A stretch of 25,848 nucleotides of DNA from Candidatus Dormiibacterota bacterium (GTDB lineage: Bacteria > Chloroflexota > Dormibacteria > Aeolococcales > Aeolococcaceae). Location of the stretch: assembly GCA_955651875.1 (NCBI GenBank), contig CATPAP010000285.1, forward strand, positions 1-25,848, read 5' to 3'. The notes beneath the pieces are model-generated. The model worked only from the letters and a program-made list of their open reading frames with translations. It did no database searches and was not told the origin of the DNA. Position numbers and translations under genes: made by a program. Of this stretch, positions 19,561 to 25,848 are shown piece by piece. Numbering within the stretch: the first letter of the stretch is position 1; every line of letters starts with the position of its first letter.

Positions 19561-21300
19561 ATGGGCACCAGGCCGGAGACAGATCTCAGCGACCGCGAGG
19601 CGAGCGGTGGCGACGATGTCGTGCTCACAGCGCGAGCCCAGCCCGCGCTGGACGAGGCATCGAATGCTGTGGCAGTCACCGATGCCGACGACATCCTCAG
19701 ATACGCATCGACCTCATGCCTGGCGCGCTTGGGGTACACGGCCGCGGAGTTGATCGGCAAGCCTCTCGCCACGTTGATCCATCCGGAGGATCGGGCGCGT
19801 GCTGCGGCCACGCGGCAGAGCAACGCAACCGCGGTCGAAGGGCGCACCGTCAGCGTGCGCTACCGGTGCAAGGACGGCTCGTATGCCTTGATCGAGAGCA
19901 AGAGCGAAACGGTCATGGACCAGCTCATCGGTGTGATGCTCGAGACCCAGGCGCTGCTCCGTGACGTGGGTCAGCGGAGAGAAGCGCAGGCGACGATCGA
20001 ACGCCAGGCGCTGACCGACTCGCTGACCGGGCTCGCCAACCGCAGCCTGCTCGCGGACCGGTTGAGTCAGGGTCTCAGGCACCTCGAGCGGAATCCGGGA
20101 TTCCTCGGCGTGCTCATGCTCGACCTCGACCACTTCAAGGTGATCAACGACACCCTCGGCCATCAAGTCGGCGACGGCGTGCTGCTCGAGGCTGCGCGGC
20201 GGCTCCAGCGCCTGGCACGCCCAGACGATACCGTGGCACGCTTCGGCGGTGACGAGTTCGTCGTGTTGGTGCAGGGCCTGGGCGACCCCGCCGACCTCAC
20301 GGCCTTTGCTGATCGCGTCGTCGCGGGACTGCGCGCGCCCTACCGGATCGGCAACGAAGAGGTCGTGGCGACGGTCAGTATCGGCATCGCGGTGGCGTCT
20401 CAGAGTGACAGCCTGCCGGCTGATTTGCTCCGTGAGGCAGACATGGCGATGTATCGCGCCAAGGACCGTGGACGCAATCGTCACGAGGTCTATGGTGCGG
20501 CACTTCAAGTGCGGGCCAGGGAACGTCTGGAGACTGAACGCCTGGTGCGGCGTGCCCTCGCCGAGGAACGCTTGGTCGTGGAGTACCAGCCCATCGTGGA
20601 CCTGGCCACCGGCATGACCGTCGAAGCCGAGGCGCTGCTCCGCATCCATGATGTGGAACGCGGCAAGTTCTCGCCCCAGCACTTTCTCGTGGTCGCCGAG
20701 GAGACAGGGCTGCTGCCGGCGATGGATGAGCGAGTACGGGCCACCGCGCTGGCCCAACTGGCGCGGTGGCGCGCAAATCCGTCTTTCAGCGGCGTCAAGC
20801 GCCTCGCCGTCAATCTCACCGCACGCGAGCTGGCCAACCCAGAGTTCGCATCCCGGCTTGCCAGTCGCCTCCACGCCGCGGGCCTGGAAGGGACCGACCT
20901 GAGCATCGAGGTGACCGAACACGTGCTGATGCAGACCTCGCACTCCGCAGTCGCCTCGCTCGCTGAACTCAGAGGCCTCGGTATGCACATCGGGCTCGAC
21001 GACTTCGGCACCGGCTTCTCGGCCCTCTCCTACCTCCAGAGCTTCCCGCTCGACTTCCTCAAGATCGATCGGTCCTTCGTCGAACGCATCTCGATCGACC
21101 ACCGAAGCTCATCAATCGTCGGCGCCATGATTGATCTCGCCCATGCTCTGGGCCTCTCCGTTGTCGCAGAGGGCATCGAGAATGCAGAGCAGCTGGCGGG
21201 CCTCCGCCAGTTTGGCTGCGACCGCGCACAGGGTTTCCTATTCTCGCCGCCGGTGTCCTCTGACGACTTCGCGAAACTACTCGCCGCCGAGTGCGCCTAA
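19561..21300 (+). CDS. PAS-GGDEF-EAL diguanylate cyclase/phosphodiesterase
   Basis: PAS (LGYTAAELIGK..IHPED..KDGS); DLDHFK, RPDD I-site five residues before GGDEF; EAL, EVTE, DDFGTGFS, KIDRSF, EGIE, QGF. Confidence 0.95.
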   Translation: MGTRPETDLSDREASGGDDVVLTARAQPALDEASNAVAVTDADDILRYASTSCLARLGYTAAELIGKPLATLIHPEDRARAAATRQSNATAVEGRTVSVRYRCKDGSYALIESKSETVMDQLIGVMLETQALLRDVGQRREAQATIERQALTDSLTGLANRSLLADRLSQGLRHLERNPGFLGVLMLDLDHFKVINDTLGHQVGDGVLLEAARRLQRLARPDDTVARFGGDEFVVLVQGLGDPADLTAFADRVVAGLRAPYRIGNEEVVATVSIGIAVASQSDSLPADLLREADMAMYRAKDRGRNRHEVYGAALQVRARERLETERLVRRALAEERLVVEYQPIVDLATGMTVEAEALLRIHDVERGKFSPQHFLVVAEETGLLPAMDERVRATALAQLARWRANPSFSGVKRLAVNLTARELANPEFASRLASRLHAAGLEGTDLSIEVTEHVLMQTSHSAVASLAELRGLGMHIGLDDFGTGFSALSYLQSFPLDFLKIDRSFVERISIDHRSSSIVGAMIDLAHALGLSVVAEGIENAEQLAGLRQFGCDRAQGFLFSPPVSSDDFAKLLAAECA

Positions 21301-21506: not shown

Positions 21507-21914
21507 GTGAAGCGGTTGCTGGCGGCGCTGGGGGGCGGTGTCGCCGTGTTTGCGTTGATATTTGCCCTGGCGGCCAGCCTCAACCTCACCTCTGACAGCC
21601 TGGGTGCGGGCACTGCGGTCGTCGCGTCCTGCCAGGCCGGCGTCATGAATGCCACGTATACGTCGACGTATTCATCGAGCCTGCCCGGGTACTACGTCGG
21701 GTCTGTCGTCCTCACCGGTCTCACCGCTCCGTGCTACAACCTCCCCTATAAGGTCACGCTGTCCGGCGCGGCCAACGCGTCCCTCGGTGAGGTGACCGGA
21801 ACGACGCCTGGGAGTGGCGCGACCATCACCGTAACGTTCCCGGTCCCACCGGCTGCGGGCAACGCTTCGAGCGCCCTGGTCACGGGAGTGAGCGTGGTCA
21901 TCTCGACACATTGA
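21507..21914 (+). CDS. Small secreted beta-rich protein A1 (putative fibre subunit), 135 aa
   Basis: GGAGG RBS, GTG start, Sec signal, ASLNLTSDSLGAG, Cys42 and Cys76, Thr/Ser/Gly/Val-rich. Confidence 0.85.
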   Translation: MKRLLAALGGGVAVFALIFALAASLNLTSDSLGAGTAVVASCQAGVMNATYTSTYSSSLPGYYVGSVVLTGLTAPCYNLPYKVTLSGAANASLGEVTGTTPGSGATITVTFPVPPAAGNASSALVTGVSVVISTH

Positions 21915-22080
21915 CCGGGTCCGATCCGGAGCGCTGTAGCGCGGACGACCGCCGATGTGACGACCTTGGCACATAACAACTGCCCCAAAACCGCGCCACC
22001 ATATGGGCTACATACGATCTCCGCGGATCGGCCGACGTGAGCCCCAATGCCACGCGGTCCGAGACCATGGAGGATCACCT

Positions 22081-22470
22081 GTGAAACGGTTGCTAGGAGC
22101 CTTGGCCGGCGGTGTTGCCGTCTTCGGCTTGATATTCGCCCTGGCGGCGAGCCTGAACTTCACGTCCGACAGCCTGGGCGCGGGGAACGCAGTCGTCGCT
22201 GCCTGTCAAGCCGGGGTCATGAACGCCCAGTACGCGCACACGTACACCGCGGCGACTCCCGGGTACACCACTGGTATCGTCACGATCACCGGTCTGACCG
22301 CGCCGTGCTACAGCCTCCCGTTCAAGGTCACCCTGTACGGCGCAGCCGGCGCGTCCCTTGGCGAGGTGACCGGGACGACCCCGGCAGCCGGCACCACTTT
22401 CACGGCAACGTTCGCGACCGTTTCCGAGGCGTCGATCACCGGTATTGCGGCAGTCCTCTCAACCCACTGA
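22081..22470 (+). CDS. Small secreted beta-rich protein A2 (close paralogue of A1), 129 aa
   Basis: GGAGG RBS, GTG start; 84 of the first 111 residues identical to A1 by my manual alignment. Confidence 0.88.
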   Translation: MKRLLGALAGGVAVFGLIFALAASLNFTSDSLGAGNAVVAACQAGVMNAQYAHTYTAATPGYTTGIVTITGLTAPCYSLPFKVTLYGAAGASLGEVTGTTPAAGTTFTATFATVSEASITGIAAVLSTH

Positions 22471-22481
22471 GAGCCGGCGAG

Positions 22482-22871
22482 TTGAATCGGGCGGCTCTGC
22501 GTCGACGGCTGCGGCGACTGGCTCCGATCGCCTTCGCCCCGGTCGTCTTCACGAGCGCGATGGCTGCCTCCATCAGTCTCACCACGGATGGACTCGGTGC
22601 CGGCAGGGCTGCGATTCCCCGCTGCAATGCGGGGGGCTTGGAGGTGATCCAGAACCTCACCGGCGCGAACGTGACCAGCGTCACGGTGAAGGCGGTCCCA
22701 GCCGGGTGTCAAGGCCAGACGCTGTCGTTGACGCTCAACAATAACGCCGGGGCCAACAGCGGTGGCAGCAGCGCCGTTCCCGGGGCTGGTTGCCCGTGCG
22801 CTGTGACCGTGACGCTCGGGGCCGCCACTGCCGCCACGCCAAACGAGCAGATCGACTGGCTGATCGCATGA
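22482..22871 (+). CDS. Small secreted protein B (distant paralogue of A1/A2), 129 aa
   Basis: TTG start 11 bp after the A2 stop. Arg-rich n-region, ASISLTTDGLGAG...C, then PAGCQGQTLSLTL matching TAPCYNLPYKVTL. Confidence 0.75.
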   Translation: MNRAALRRRLRRLAPIAFAPVVFTSAMAASISLTTDGLGAGRAAIPRCNAGGLEVIQNLTGANVTSVTVKAVPAGCQGQTLSLTLNNNAGANSGGSSAVPGAGCPCAVTVTLGAATAATPNEQIDWLIA

Positions 22872-23587
22872 GGGCCTGGCGATCGGCGCTTCATCTTCCT
22901 CTTCTCCTTGGCGTGGGGATCGGACTCACGTTGATTCCGGCCGCGGCAGCGAGCATCCCGCTGACGTCAAACAATTACACCCCGTATCGGACCTGCGTCA
23001 TTACGGGGAATCCCGCAAGCACGAGCGACGTCATCGATTCCTACGTGGAGCAGGCAAACCCGGGTACCAATAACGGCGCGCTCGCCACCCTGAGAGTGCA
23101 GTCTGGTCCCGGAGCCCCCCCGGTCAACCAGCGCACCTACGTCAAATTTCTTCTCAGCACGTGCGTGCCGGCGATTCCCGCGTCTGCAACCGCGATCACC
23201 GGCAACCTGCGCCTCTGGGCCTCAACGCTGCCGGGCGGCGCCTGCCGGACGGTCAACGTCCAAAAGGCGACCGCGACCTGGACCGAGCTCGGGATCACCT
23301 GGACAAACCAACCCACCTTCTCCGCTGCCGTGGCCAGCTCGTTCACCATTGGCCCTGTCGGCGGTGGGTGCACGTACCAGGCGGCCGGCTACGTCGATGT
23401 CACCAGCGCGACGATCGATACCAACGTGGCCTCCTGGATCACCACGCCTGCCAACAATTTCGGCTGGGTTCTCAAGGACAAGACGGAGGGGAATGCCGCG
23501 ACCGTCACCACGATCTTCAGTGCCAAGGACCTCGGTACGCTCGCTCAAGCACCGCAGCTCACCGTCACCTACAAGGCCGTGCCATGA
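22868..23587 (+). CDS. Secreted protein C with a DNRLRE/CBM96-like domain, 239 aa
   Basis: ATGA overlap with B. Signal then ASIPLTS. DSYVEQANPGTNNG, RTYVKFLLS, GNLRLW, WTELGITWTNQP fit the DNRLRE/DUF7594 pattern as I recall it. Confidence 0.78.
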   Translation: MRAWRSALHLPLLLGVGIGLTLIPAAAASIPLTSNNYTPYRTCVITGNPASTSDVIDSYVEQANPGTNNGALATLRVQSGPGAPPVNQRTYVKFLLSTCVPAIPASATAITGNLRLWASTLPGGACRTVNVQKATATWTELGITWTNQPTFSAAVASSFTIGPVGGGCTYQAAGYVDVTSATIDTNVASWITTPANNFGWVLKDKTEGNAATVTTIFSAKDLGTLAQAPQLTVTYKAVP

Positions 23588-24114
23588 GCACCGGTCGGCT
23601 CCGCAAGGTGCTCAGTGTCGTCGCGGTGGTGTGCGCCCTGCTCGGGCTGGCATCGCTCTTTCATCCGCTTGGTTTTCCCGGCCCACTGACCGTGACCATC
23701 ATCAAGGGCACCTCCATGCAGCCCGCGTATCGTACCGGGGCCCTTCTGGTGCTGAGAGCGGAGTCAAACTACGCCGTCGGCACCGCGGCCGCCTACCGCG
23801 TTCCCGCAGGCGACCTCGGCGCCGGGAAGATCGTGATCCATCGCATCATCGGCGGCAACGGGACGACCGGCTTTGTCATGAAGGGCGACAACAACAATGC
23901 ACCTGACCCCTGGGTGCCCAAGCAGGCCGACATGGTCGGCGCGGCGTGGATCTACCTTCCATCACTGGGCCAAGGCCTGGTCTACCTCCATCAGCCCGTG
24001 ATCGAGGCCGGACTGGCCTCCTCGATCATGGTCGCGTACTTGCTGGCCCGCAAACCCAAGCAAGAGCGAGCTGACGCCCTCGACAACAGCAGCCCCAACG
24101 TGGAAGCCGCGTAA
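23584..24114 (+). CDS. sipW: Signal peptidase I, Ser-His (SipW/ER/archaeal-type, S26B)
   Basis: ATGA overlap with C. N-terminal TM, GTSMQP (Ser), VIHRI (His rather than Lys), KGDNN..PDP, C-terminal hydrophobic segment. Confidence 0.88.
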   Translation: MSTGRLRKVLSVVAVVCALLGLASLFHPLGFPGPLTVTIIKGTSMQPAYRTGALLVLRAESNYAVGTAAAYRVPAGDLGAGKIVIHRIIGGNGTTGFVMKGDNNNAPDPWVPKQADMVGAAWIYLPSLGQGLVYLHQPVIEAGLASSIMVAYLLARKPKQERADALDNSSPNVEAA

Positions 24115-24275: not shown

Positions 24276-25848
24276 TTGGCTTCGCCCCGGCCCATCGCAC
24301 GGCCAACGCGGTCAGGGGCACCGCTGAGGACTGCGACCATCTCGGACTCGACCGAGCAACCTGACCGCGACGCCACCCCGGCAAGCCACCAATGGCAGCG
24401 GCGACCTGTGCTGAGCATGCTCGTCCGCGTCGGTGTCGTCGCCGCCCCGGCGACGGCAGGACTGGCCACCGCCGCAACCCTGAGCCGCCTCTTGCCGCGC
24501 GCGTCCGGTGCGCCCCAAACGCTGCTGTTCTTCGCCGCGATCAGCGTGGCGATGCTGCTGGTGATCCTCGCGGTGGAGCGCGCGGCTCGCCGCCTGCTGC
24601 CCCTGGCGGCCCTCCTCAACCTCTCGCTGCTGTTCCCTGACAAGGCGCCGAAGCGTTTTGCAGTGGCCCGGCGTGTCGGCCGGCCACGCGACCTGCAACG
24701 CCAGTTGCAGGAGGCGCGGGACAACGGCGTCGAGGGCGGGGAAGTCGCCTACATGCAGACGGTGCTCGAGCTCGTGGCAGCGCTCAGCGTTCACGATCGG
24801 CAGACCCGCGGCCACTCGGAGCGAGTGCGAGTCTTCGCGGACCTCATCGCCGTCGAGATGAAGCTGCCACCCGCTGATCGGGCGCGCCTGCGCTGGGCAT
24901 CGCTGCTCCACGACATCGGCAAGCTCCTCGTTCCCAGCGAGATCCTCTGCAAGCCGGCGGCGCTGAACGCGACGGAATGGGAGAAGGTCCAGCGGCATCC
25001 CGAGGAGGGCGCGCGCCTTATCGGCCCGCTCCGGGCGTGGCTGGGCCAATGGGCGGCGGCTGTGGAGCACCACCACGAGCGGTGGGATGGCAAGGGATAT
25101 CCCCAGGCTCTGGCCGGGGAGAACATCTCTCTCAGTGGTCGGATCGTGGGGGTGGCGGACTCATACGAGGTCATGACGGCCGTGCGTCCATACCGCCGAC
25201 CGATTGGAGTGGTCGCTGCCCGCGAGGAGCTGGTGCGATGCTCGGGCAAGCAGTTCGATCCCGCGGTGGTGAGGGCCTTCCTCAACATCTCGGTGGGACG
25301 GCTGTGGCGAGTGGTCGGCGTCGGATCCTGGATAGCGCAGCTGCCCCTGCTCGCCTGGGTAAATGGCCTGGGATTGCAGTGGGGCAGTGCGATCGTGTCG
25401 GGGTCGACCGCATTGGGACTGGCCGCGCCGGGGATACTGCCGAGCCCCGACGCGGTCCCTCAGCCGCACACGACGCCTGCCATCGCCAACACCAACGCGT
25501 CTGGCGGTGCCGCACGAGGTGCCGGAGGCCCGGGGTCCACATCGCCGAGTTCGCCGGCGCATGGTGGCCTGCCCGCCGCAGGAGCGCCACCACCCGCTGC
25601 TGGACCAATCTCCCTGCCGGCACCGTCGACCTCACCGCAGCCCCCGCCGAGGCCAACCTCCCCGCAACCAACGCCAGTACCGAGCTCCGTCACCCAACCG
25701 GTGCTGTCGATGCCGGCGCCGGCAGTTGTCTTTGAGTCGACCTATACCGCGAGCGGCTGGTTCGCGGACTCGGGCGGCAGTGGCTGGACTGCAACCGTTG
25801 ATTACGGCGATGGATCGGGGGCTCATGCACTGCCCCTGAGTGGAGACA
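24276..25848 (+). CDS. Membrane-anchored HD-GYP phosphodiesterase with a Pro-rich stalk and probable PKD-like C-terminal domain; 3'-partial, start uncertain
   Basis: My translation of frame 3 (absent from the ORF track because it has no stop in the window): two hydrophobic segments, LPLAALLNLSLLFPD, HDRQTRGHSERV, LLHDIGK, HHHERWDGKGYP, ADSYEVMT.VRPY, FDP, a hydrophobic segment, a Pro/Ser/Thr-rich linker, WTATVDYGDGS. Confidence 0.88.
   Translation, partial: MASPRPIARPTRSGAPLRTATISDSTEQPDRDATPASHQWQRRPVLSMLVRVGVVAAPATAGLATAATLSRLLPRASGAPQTLLFFAAISVAMLLVILAVERAARRLLPLAALLNLSLLFPDKAPKRFAVARRVGRPRDLQRQLQEARDNGVEGGEVAYMQTVLELVAALSVHDRQTRGHSERVRVFADLIAVEMKLPPADRARLRWASLLHDIGKLLVPSEILCKPAALNATEWEKVQRHPEEGARLIGPLRAWLGQWAAAVEHHHERWDGKGYPQALAGENISLSGRIVGVADSYEVMTAVRPYRRPIGVVAAREELVRCSGKQFDPAVVRAFLNISVGRLWRVVGVGSWIAQLPLLAWVNGLGLQWGSAIVSGSTALGLAAPGILPSPDAVPQPHTTPAIANTNASGGAARGAGGPGSTSPSSPAHGGLPAAGAPPPAAGPISLPAPSTSPQPPPRPTSPQPTPVPSSVTQPVLSMPAPAVVFESTYTASGWFADSGGSGWTATVDYGDGSGAHALPLSGD

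Follow-up and report, generated by a model that had tools for sequence, protein, structure and literature searches.

A five-gene operon of tagged secreted proteins and a SipW-type signal peptidase, a candidate fibre or matrix module in Chloroflexota and Actinomycetota

Organization of the operon

The window analysed here is a stretch of 25,848 nucleotides (nt), positions 1 to 25,848 of contig CATPAP010000285.1 from a Candidatus Dormiibacterota bacterium of soil (Chloroflexota; assembly GCA_955651875.1); at positions 21507-24114 it carries five co-directional genes on the + strand, namely A1, A2, B and C, whose secreted products have an N-terminal tag in common, and a gene for a signal peptidase of the SipW/Sec11 type. 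An earlier note on this DNA had claimed four secreted-protein genes (135, 129, 129 and 239 amino acids, aa) followed by a Ser-His signal peptidase, and the open reading frames (ORFs) and their coordinates are as it described them. The features of the operon are the following.

A1: 21507-21914, + strand; 135 aa, GTG start, GGAGG 5-9 nt upstream; candidate major subunit, copy 1, of a two-Cys immunoglobulin (Ig)-like family
A1 tag: 21564-21611, + strand; A-L-A-A-S-L-N-L-T-S-D-S-L-G-A-G, comprising the signal-peptide end, the predicted AxA cleavage site and a conserved post-cleavage segment
A2: 22081-22470, + strand; 129 aa, GTG start, GGAGG upstream; paralogue of A1
B: 22482-22871, + strand; 129 aa, TTG start; divergent, single-copy paralogue of A1, candidate minor subunit
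C: 22868-23587, + strand; 239 aa; signal peptide, shared tag and a jelly-roll module of the CBM96/DNRLRE type
Peptidase: 23584-24114, + strand; 176 aa, SipW/Sec11-type (S26B), with an N-terminal membrane helix

As for the spacing of the genes, TTG is the sole usable start of B and lies 11 nt past the stop codon of A2, with no overlap between the two; the ATGA overlaps by which the last three genes were said to be coupled are present between B and C (22868-22871) and between C and the peptidase gene (23584-23587). The DNA has a G+C content of 65-70%. No Rfam element or riboswitch was found within or upstream of the operon, the search for a sigma-70-like promoter gave no match for it, and Pfam and NCBIfam searches detected in it no genes of the sortase, chaperone-usher or type IV pilin machineries. 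The source genome assembly amounts to 1.84 Mb and is 58% complete; the genome-wide results given below cover this assembled part.

The shared N-terminal tag

One motif, A-A-S-(L/I)-x-(L/F)-T-(S/T), marks the signal-peptide ends of A1, A2, B and C, C being unrelated to the other three; the tag as a whole reaches over the first 12-20 residues of the mature proteins. The signal peptides are of the classical n-h-c type with a hydrophobic core of about 18-20 residues. In C the tag reads A-A-S-I-P-L-T-S..Y-R-T-C, and the orthologues of C retain it, followed by T-P-Y-R-T-C. A scan of the 20,564 ORFs of the assembled genome, with a regular expression and with a hidden Markov model (HMM) of the tag, found it exclusively in A1, A2, B and C.

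In an alignment of 118 members of the A family, the 12-residue windows of highest conservation all have their first residue between positions 14 and 32 and together cover 14-43; A22 is conserved at 99%, A23 at 96%, L25 at 91%, L32-G-A-G at 69-86%, V39 at 87% and C42 at 100%, and this conservation runs from the predicted A-x-A cleavage site to about 20 residues inside the mature protein. Cys42 is invariant and Cys76 is 99% conserved in the same alignment; because they are the sole cysteines of A1 and A2, and near-invariant in the family, we infer that they form a disulfide in the A proteins.

Regarding other sorting signals, the claim that the subunits have no class III (type IV pilin) signal and no LPxTG tail holds, and that of a missing lipobox does not hold to the letter: V-A-S-C, in front of Cys42 of the A proteins, formally fits the pattern. 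Lipidation at this residue appears unlikely, since some 19 residues separate it from the hydrophobic core and Cys76 is its near-invariant partner. These features bear on a reading in which the hydrophobic segment is retained, or Cys42 lipidated, so that A, B and C are tethered to the membrane and the peptidase homologue has some other role; the long hydrophobic core and the V-A-S-C match would suit such proteins, but the distance of Cys42 from the core would not, lipoboxes being placed next to it, and the pairing with Cys76 points to a disulfide instead. Moreover, the position expected for cleavage carries an A-x-A motif conserved at 96-99% and the peptidase retains all its catalytic residues, and we regard this reading as very improbable.

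The A/B protein family

A1 and A2 are 71% identical, while B aligns with A1 at 32% identity; the family HMM matches A1 with an E value of 4e-43 and B with one of 1.6e-12. The length of A2 is typical of the family, and the closest relatives of the A proteins are 129-aa proteins from metagenome-assembled genomes (MAGs) of "Candidatus Limnocylindria" and other Chloroflexota. The predicted mature proteins measure 10.9 kDa for A1, 10.5 kDa for A2, 9.5 kDa for B and 22 kDa for C, values that depend on a cleavage site uncertain by one or two residues.

The A family comprises 492 proteins at E ≤0.01 in a 90%-clustered collection and 588 representative clusters at E ≤0.001 in a 50%-clustered library; all the source names seen in it are "hypothetical protein", and it includes proteins from Nocardioides hankookensis, which is cultured, and from a Nocardioidaceae MAG. 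The look-alike clusters in the ESM Atlas are likewise unnamed, and mostly actinobacterial. No Pfam or NCBIfam model matched A1, A2 or B at E ≤1, including Peptidase_M73, TIGR04088, TIGR04089 and DUF1102, and the 118 aligned members gave no meaningful sequence match in Pfam, NCBIfam or the PDB; the PDB profile matches that did come up (antibody V domains and one outer-membrane protein, all at E ≥0.1) were discarded as chance. In the literature searched, no published account was found of the A family, or of a SipW-linked fibre in Chloroflexota or Actinomycetota. Judged by these sequence comparisons, the A family is a separate family, new to Pfam and NCBIfam and to the literature searched, in line with what had been claimed of it: that it is undescribed, and that it consists of distinct small subunits and not of TasA or CalY.

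The A genes of relatives usually form tandem arrays of two to five copies, with up to four A genes and a B-type gene in one cluster, and the B-type orthologues keep their position between the last A gene and C in the A-B-C-peptidase cassettes. Three apparent natural A-A tandem fusions (P0150, P0121 and P0254) were dropped, being frameshifted reads of A and B genes. A 1887-aa protein with seven matching stretches, P0154, was rejected as a spurious relative; it is a eukaryotic Ig-repeat protein. The tag region, S-L-x-L-x-S-D-S-L-G-A-G-x-A-V-V-A-x-C, attracts V-set Ig domains (P0154, Fab heavy chains), whose E-F strand motif is L..L...D.A.Y.C; these matches are treated as a chance resemblance.

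Two further observations concern the signal region. B and its orthologues have an Arg-Arg pair directly before the hydrophobic core (RRL, RRI, RRM or RRA; 22482-22530 in the window), where the A proteins have Lys-Arg, and the pair may hint at a different export route for the minor subunit, similar to twin-arginine translocation (Tat). In addition, A1 contains four N-x-S/T sequons (21582-21590, 21648-21656, 21774-21782 and 21861-21869), one of them inside the tag (N-L-T), and A2 contains one; the sequon in the tag of A1 is not family-wide, position 26 being mostly Gly or Asn.

The signal peptidase

The peptidase scores 64.4 bits against TIGR02228 (sigpep_I_arch), whose cut-off is 51.85 bits, as the HMM check proposed in the earlier note was to establish; the whole-genome search returned the same result, and the match to the Bacillus SipW equivalog model is weak. 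Ser44 (SM box), His86 (HR) and Asp102/Asp108 (GDNN..DP) occupy columns without variation in 14 homologues of two phyla, with His86 taking the place of the Lys of LepB-type enzymes; the catalytic roles of Ser44, His86 and Asp102 are presumably those established by the published mutagenesis of SipW. In the assembled genome this is the sole SipW-type gene detected with TIGR02228. A LepB-type signal peptidase is encoded elsewhere, on contig C164, and for this reason the enzyme of the operon is read as an additional one, probably dedicated to its neighbours.

Distribution and linkage of the cassette

Distribution was assessed with the family HMM on even samples of 401 genomes per phylum, and linkage by searching the six-frame ORFs of the loci with the family HMM, the peptidase and C. 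The A family occurred in 10 Chloroflexota genomes (about 2.5%; 6/217 genera) and in 14 Actinomycetota genomes (about 3.5%), and it is a patchy accessory module rather than a core gene of a lineage. The predicted association with a SipW-type peptidase was borne out by the neighbourhood analysis: such a gene directly adjoins the A genes in all 10 of the Chloroflexota genomes and in 11 of the 14 from Actinomycetota, and the linkage is found as well on independent metagenome contigs with differing flanks (L001-L006, L011, L040 and L042). As for the remaining Actinomycetota, G507 has its A array at the end of one contig, while another contig opens with a SipW-type gene, the two plausibly being split by the contig break, and G604 has a marginal family match on a contig of 3.4 kb; the third, G499, is considered further below.

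The full A(n)-B-C-peptidase cassette, with a CBM96 protein, is present in Limnocylindria-type genomes and in five sampled actinobacterial genomes, and the gene order is conserved among the cassettes. Because the cassette recurs within unrelated flanks, and because the tag is private to four proteins of the assembled genome, the arrangement is not due to chance. Other lineages have peptidases with large additional regions fused to them, and in place of C they have another gene or none at all. Nocardioides hankookensis, for one, has an A gene together with a peptidase-fusion gene at the WP_379159023.1 locus. Two loci illustrate the fusions: in L040 (7447-9384, Nocardioides hankookensis) and L042 (7466-8758) the SipW-type peptidase forms the N-terminal part of a 645-aa and a 430-aa protein, respectively, and the extension has no confident Pfam domain and a weak CBM_2 match. 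In another locus, on a metagenome contig (L013:983-2332), a 449-aa RTX (HemolysinCabind) repeat protein follows the A gene instead of B and C, and the contig ends before any peptidase position.

SipW-type peptidases are far more frequent than the A family, with 92 of the 401 Chloroflexota genomes above the TIGR02228 cut-off and up to eight genes in one genome (G026). Since the A family is found in only 10 of these genomes, most of the Chloroflexota enzymes must serve other substrate families, which are probably unannotated.

A further feature of the relatives is a strong GC-rich hairpin, with a stem of 10-15 bp and a shuffle z of about -2.5 to -4.3, which in most of them stands immediately behind the last high-scoring A gene, ahead of B. 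It was located at L002:6388-6462 and L004:611-677 and in the A-to-B gaps of L075, L077, L079, L031, L032, L033, L038, L020, L084 and L028; hairpins follow the A genes in both phyla, with unrelated sequences. The element may act as an attenuator within the operon, or stabilise the 3' end of an mRNA, and in this way set the ratio of A to B and C; its position fits a high expression of A and a low one of B, C and the peptidase in these relatives.

Predicted folds and protein C

The AlphaFold2 model of A1, built on the 118-sequence alignment, has a pLDDT of 84.6 and consists of a signal helix (residues 2-23), a stretch of low confidence (24-34) and a seven-strand Ig-like beta sandwich; the N-terminal segment that follows the cleavage site is disordered in this monomer model. 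A Foldseek search of the PDB returned nothing below E 0.03, and VIA-align against 48,161 PDB representatives gave generic matches of the Ig/FN3 type, the best with a Z of 6.3, within the background range; among AlphaFold DB clusters only uncharacterised proteins were matched. The Foldseek comparison that the earlier note had proposed yields, in short, only generic sandwiches and no TasA-like chain among the 50 best matches. Structural look-alikes in the ESM Atlas (TM 0.60-0.64) are larger actinobacterial proteins that also contain Laminin_G_3, PA14, collagen, EPTP or RCC1 domains; judged by structural similarity, this is the pattern expected of a pilin-like module that carries adhesin domains, and the multidomain proteins could be tip adhesins of the same system.

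Protein C is of another kind. It exceeds the cut-offs of NF033679 (77.6 bits, cut-off 34) and of PF24517, the CBM96 model (72.7 bits, cut-off 26), and its AlphaFold2 model (pLDDT 80.5) shows no regular structure at residues 23-39 and a beta jelly-roll from residue 40 onwards, for which the best PDB match is 8wab, a chondroitin-sulfate-binding carbohydrate-binding module (CBM; E 1.4e-7, TM by target 0.74-0.75). HMM and fold concur that C carries a carbohydrate-binding module, and its globular part is a member of the CBM96/DNRLRE group by both. The founding member of CBM96 binds alginate (PMC9971899); the known members are modules of polysaccharide lyases, whereas that of C is the only domain after a fibre-type tag and is encoded in an operon with a peptidase.

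C consists of the tag and the CBM, with no A-like domain. If strand donation applies to this system, C as modelled can donate a strand and not accept one, because it has the tag and lacks the A-like domain; for the same reason, a role as a TapA-like nucleator, an anchor or a linker to extracellular polymeric substances (EPS) is at least as likely as that of a tip adhesin.

Comparison with Tafi, TasA and related families

Two characterised systems invite comparison. The Tafi fibres of Haloarcula hispanica are built from a major subunit (TafA), a minor one (TafE) and a tip protein with a lectin domain (TafC), with TafD as the dedicated signal peptidase, and Sec-dependent taf-like clusters exist in Thermococcales and Archaeoglobus (PMC11821415). 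In Bacillus subtilis, SipW cleaves TasA and TapA; the N-terminal strand of TasA is the donor strand that completes the next subunit, and TapA, which shares this N-terminal sequence, is the proposed source of the first one (PMC9674648).

The operon resembles Tafi in its components, both having a small major protein, a minor one of similar size, a lectin or carbohydrate-binding protein and a dedicated signal peptidase I, and a conserved N-terminal region common to all secreted components. In both, assembly is proposed to proceed by donor-strand exchange without chaperone, usher or sortase. The peptidases of the relatives L040 and L042, with their large extra domains, also recall the two-domain TafD. 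On the other hand, A and B have no TafA/DUF1102 (PF06510) match at E ≤1, the A subunits are of about 11 kDa whereas those of Tafi are of 17-19 kDa, the A signals are of the Sec type (K-R) and those of Tafi of the Tat type, C has no pilin-like domain, unlike TafC, and the window has no TafF-like anchor, TafG/DUF5305 or TafB regulator; finally, the hosts of the cassette are bacteria (Chloroflexota and Actinomycetota).

With the tapA-sipW-tasA operon, the cassette has in common a SipW-type peptidase that is encoded alongside its known or putative substrates (PMC9674648, PMC10151520) and an N-terminal segment common to subunit and accessory protein, which in TasA is the donor strand; since TapA gives the first strand and links the fibre to the cell wall, C could be its parallel. 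The differences are again several: A is a small Ig-like sandwich and TasA a jelly-roll, the accessory protein C carries a CBM96-type module, the peptidase gene comes last in the cassette of the window, and the A proteins are less than half the size of TasA. The HMM checks bear out the claim that the subunits are not TasA, with no match of A1, A2, B or C to TasA/Peptidase_M73, TIGR04088 or TIGR04089 at E ≤1; in size, the mature A proteins are of about 11 kDa against about 26 kDa for TasA. The genome has no PF12389 match, in a search that did detect the B. subtilis control; TIGR04089 (cut-off 60 bits) had no match in the operon proteins or the genome, and the control genomes had no member either. 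TIGR04088 and TIGR04089 are otherwise similar in concept, being NCBIfam families defined by a special signal region and by adjacency to a SipW-type gene, also in Actinomycetota, but A, B and C match none of them and form a separate family that has no model of its own.

These comparisons also bear on the possibility of an ordinary TasA-type operon, whose subunits would have diverged far within the TasA/camelysin superfamily or within DUF1102/TafA. Its logic would agree with that of the present operon (a SipW-type peptidase, a shared N-terminal segment and an accessory protein), and the T-S-D core of the tag may loosely resemble the F-S/N-D motif of TasA-type signals. The sequences and structures argue otherwise: A1, A2, B and C match none of PF12389, TIGR04088, TIGR04089 and PF06510 at E ≤1, none of these models figures in the 25 families hit most often by the 118 relatives (E ≤0.1), PF12389 and TIGR04089 were not found in the genome, the mature subunits have less than half the mass of TasA, and no TasA-like chain is among the best 50 of the 48,161 PDB representatives. 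A divergent TasA origin is deemed improbable.

A proposed fibre or matrix module

The reading preferred here, to which we assign a probability of about 0.5, is that the operon is a self-contained export-and-assembly module for a chaperone-free fibre or matrix polymer of the Tafi/TasA kind, with polymerisation proposed by analogy to those systems. The precursors of A1, A2, B and C would be exported via Sec, and the dedicated peptidase would cleave A, B and C at the conserved A-x-A/A-S site; this would free the N-terminal segment S-L-x-L/V-T-S-x-x-L-G-A-G, predicted to be unstructured in the monomer, which as donor strand or edge strand would link the Ig-like A subunits of about 11 kDa head to tail. 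The product would be an extracellular fibre or matrix polymer assembled without a chaperone, as in TasA and Tafi, with A1 and A2 as the bulk subunits and B as a rare, low-copy one, a stoichiometry supported by the hairpin that follows the last A gene in most relatives. C would be placed at one end of the polymer, as cap, nucleator or anchor, because it has the tag and no A-like domain and could only donate; its CBM, of the type that binds acidic polysaccharides, would tie the polymer to a glycan, be it a cell-wall polymer, the EPS of the cell itself or an external surface.

Several points weigh against this reading. The A1 model is already a complete seven-strand sandwich in which a groove left by a missing strand is not evident, and the best 50 matches of the Foldseek and VIA-align searches of the PDB include no subunit of TasA, of archaeal bundling pili, of threads or of cannulae. 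Among the five operon proteins and the two neighbours, a TafF-like anchor, a sortase, an LPxTG signal and a DUF5305/TafG-like gene are all absent. The actinobacterial genome G499 (locus L081) has a solitary, high-scoring A gene, and no SipW-type peptidase was detectable within 6 kb of it or in the whole assembly. Furthermore, the hairpin found after the A genes of most relatives is missing in this window, as the gap between A2 and B measures 11 nt. Finally, the conserved tag could serve recognition by the peptidase and nothing else.

This last point leads to the main alternative, in which A, B and C are cognate substrates of the peptidase that do not polymerise, but remain monomers, soluble or attached to the wall, that serve at the surface or in the matrix, for example as small Ig-like binders and a lectin; the tag would be a recognition element only, routing them to a private peptidase for the sake of timing, membrane release or quality control. 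It is favoured by the position of the tag astride the predicted cleavage site, by the completeness of the A sandwich and its matches to generic Ig-like domains, by the several 'exported by SipW' families of NCBIfam with no known fibres (TIGR04089 is exp_by_SipW_III) and by the abundance of SipW-type peptidases in Chloroflexota genomes (92/401), mostly without the A family. It is less easily reconciled with conservation that reaches about 20 residues into the mature protein, L32-G-A-G and V39 included, a span longer than any that signal peptidases are known to read; nor does it account well for the same tag on the non-homologous C. The multiplied A genes, the constant A(n)-B-C order and the hairpin that follows A are also hard to fit, being typical of the control of subunit stoichiometry. 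On balance, this alternative is the less probable of the two but a serious rival.

Returning to the polymer, systems of this kind, in which tagged proteins of a fibre or matrix go with a signal peptidase of their own, are already known. A more specific proposal, which we put forward tentatively, is that the cassette represents a new class of donor-strand fibre, with Ig-like subunits of about 11 kDa, a private peptidase of the endoplasmic reticulum (ER) type, no chaperone, usher or sortase, and a tag-CBM protein as cap or nucleator, linked to acidic polysaccharide, the whole kit being shared horizontally between the Limnocylindria of soil and Actinomycetota. If this were so, the subunits would be smaller than those of TasA, Tafi or archaeal threads, and their fold, with no sequence relation to TasA or to Tafi/DUF1102, would be the third among fibres that a dedicated peptidase unmasks; they would also offer a very small self-assembling protein building block. 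Limnocylindria and Actinomycetota of the Gaiellales type are common in soil and nearly all uncultured, and a compact, conserved set of five genes that builds a fibre or matrix at the cell surface would offer a way into the attachment and aggregation of these bacteria. The presence of the A family in a cultured Nocardioides species makes the hypothesis directly testable, and even if the proteins did not polymerise, they would be a new class of cognate substrates of SipW-type peptidases, marked by a private tag.

Neighbouring genes

The operon is flanked by two genes on the same strand, both outside the conserved cassette.

PAS-GGDEF-EAL protein: 19561-21300, + strand; upstream neighbour, identified by Pfam matches
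HD-GYP-type (HD_5) protein: 24276-25847, + strand; downstream neighbour, Pfam HD_5 at 125 bits, running off the window

In relatives the flanks of the cassette vary, and the GGDEF/EAL and HD-GYP genes are not kept beside it. Control by cyclic di-GMP was dropped on this ground as a feature of the family; because these neighbours are not conserved, it is at most a local feature of this window.

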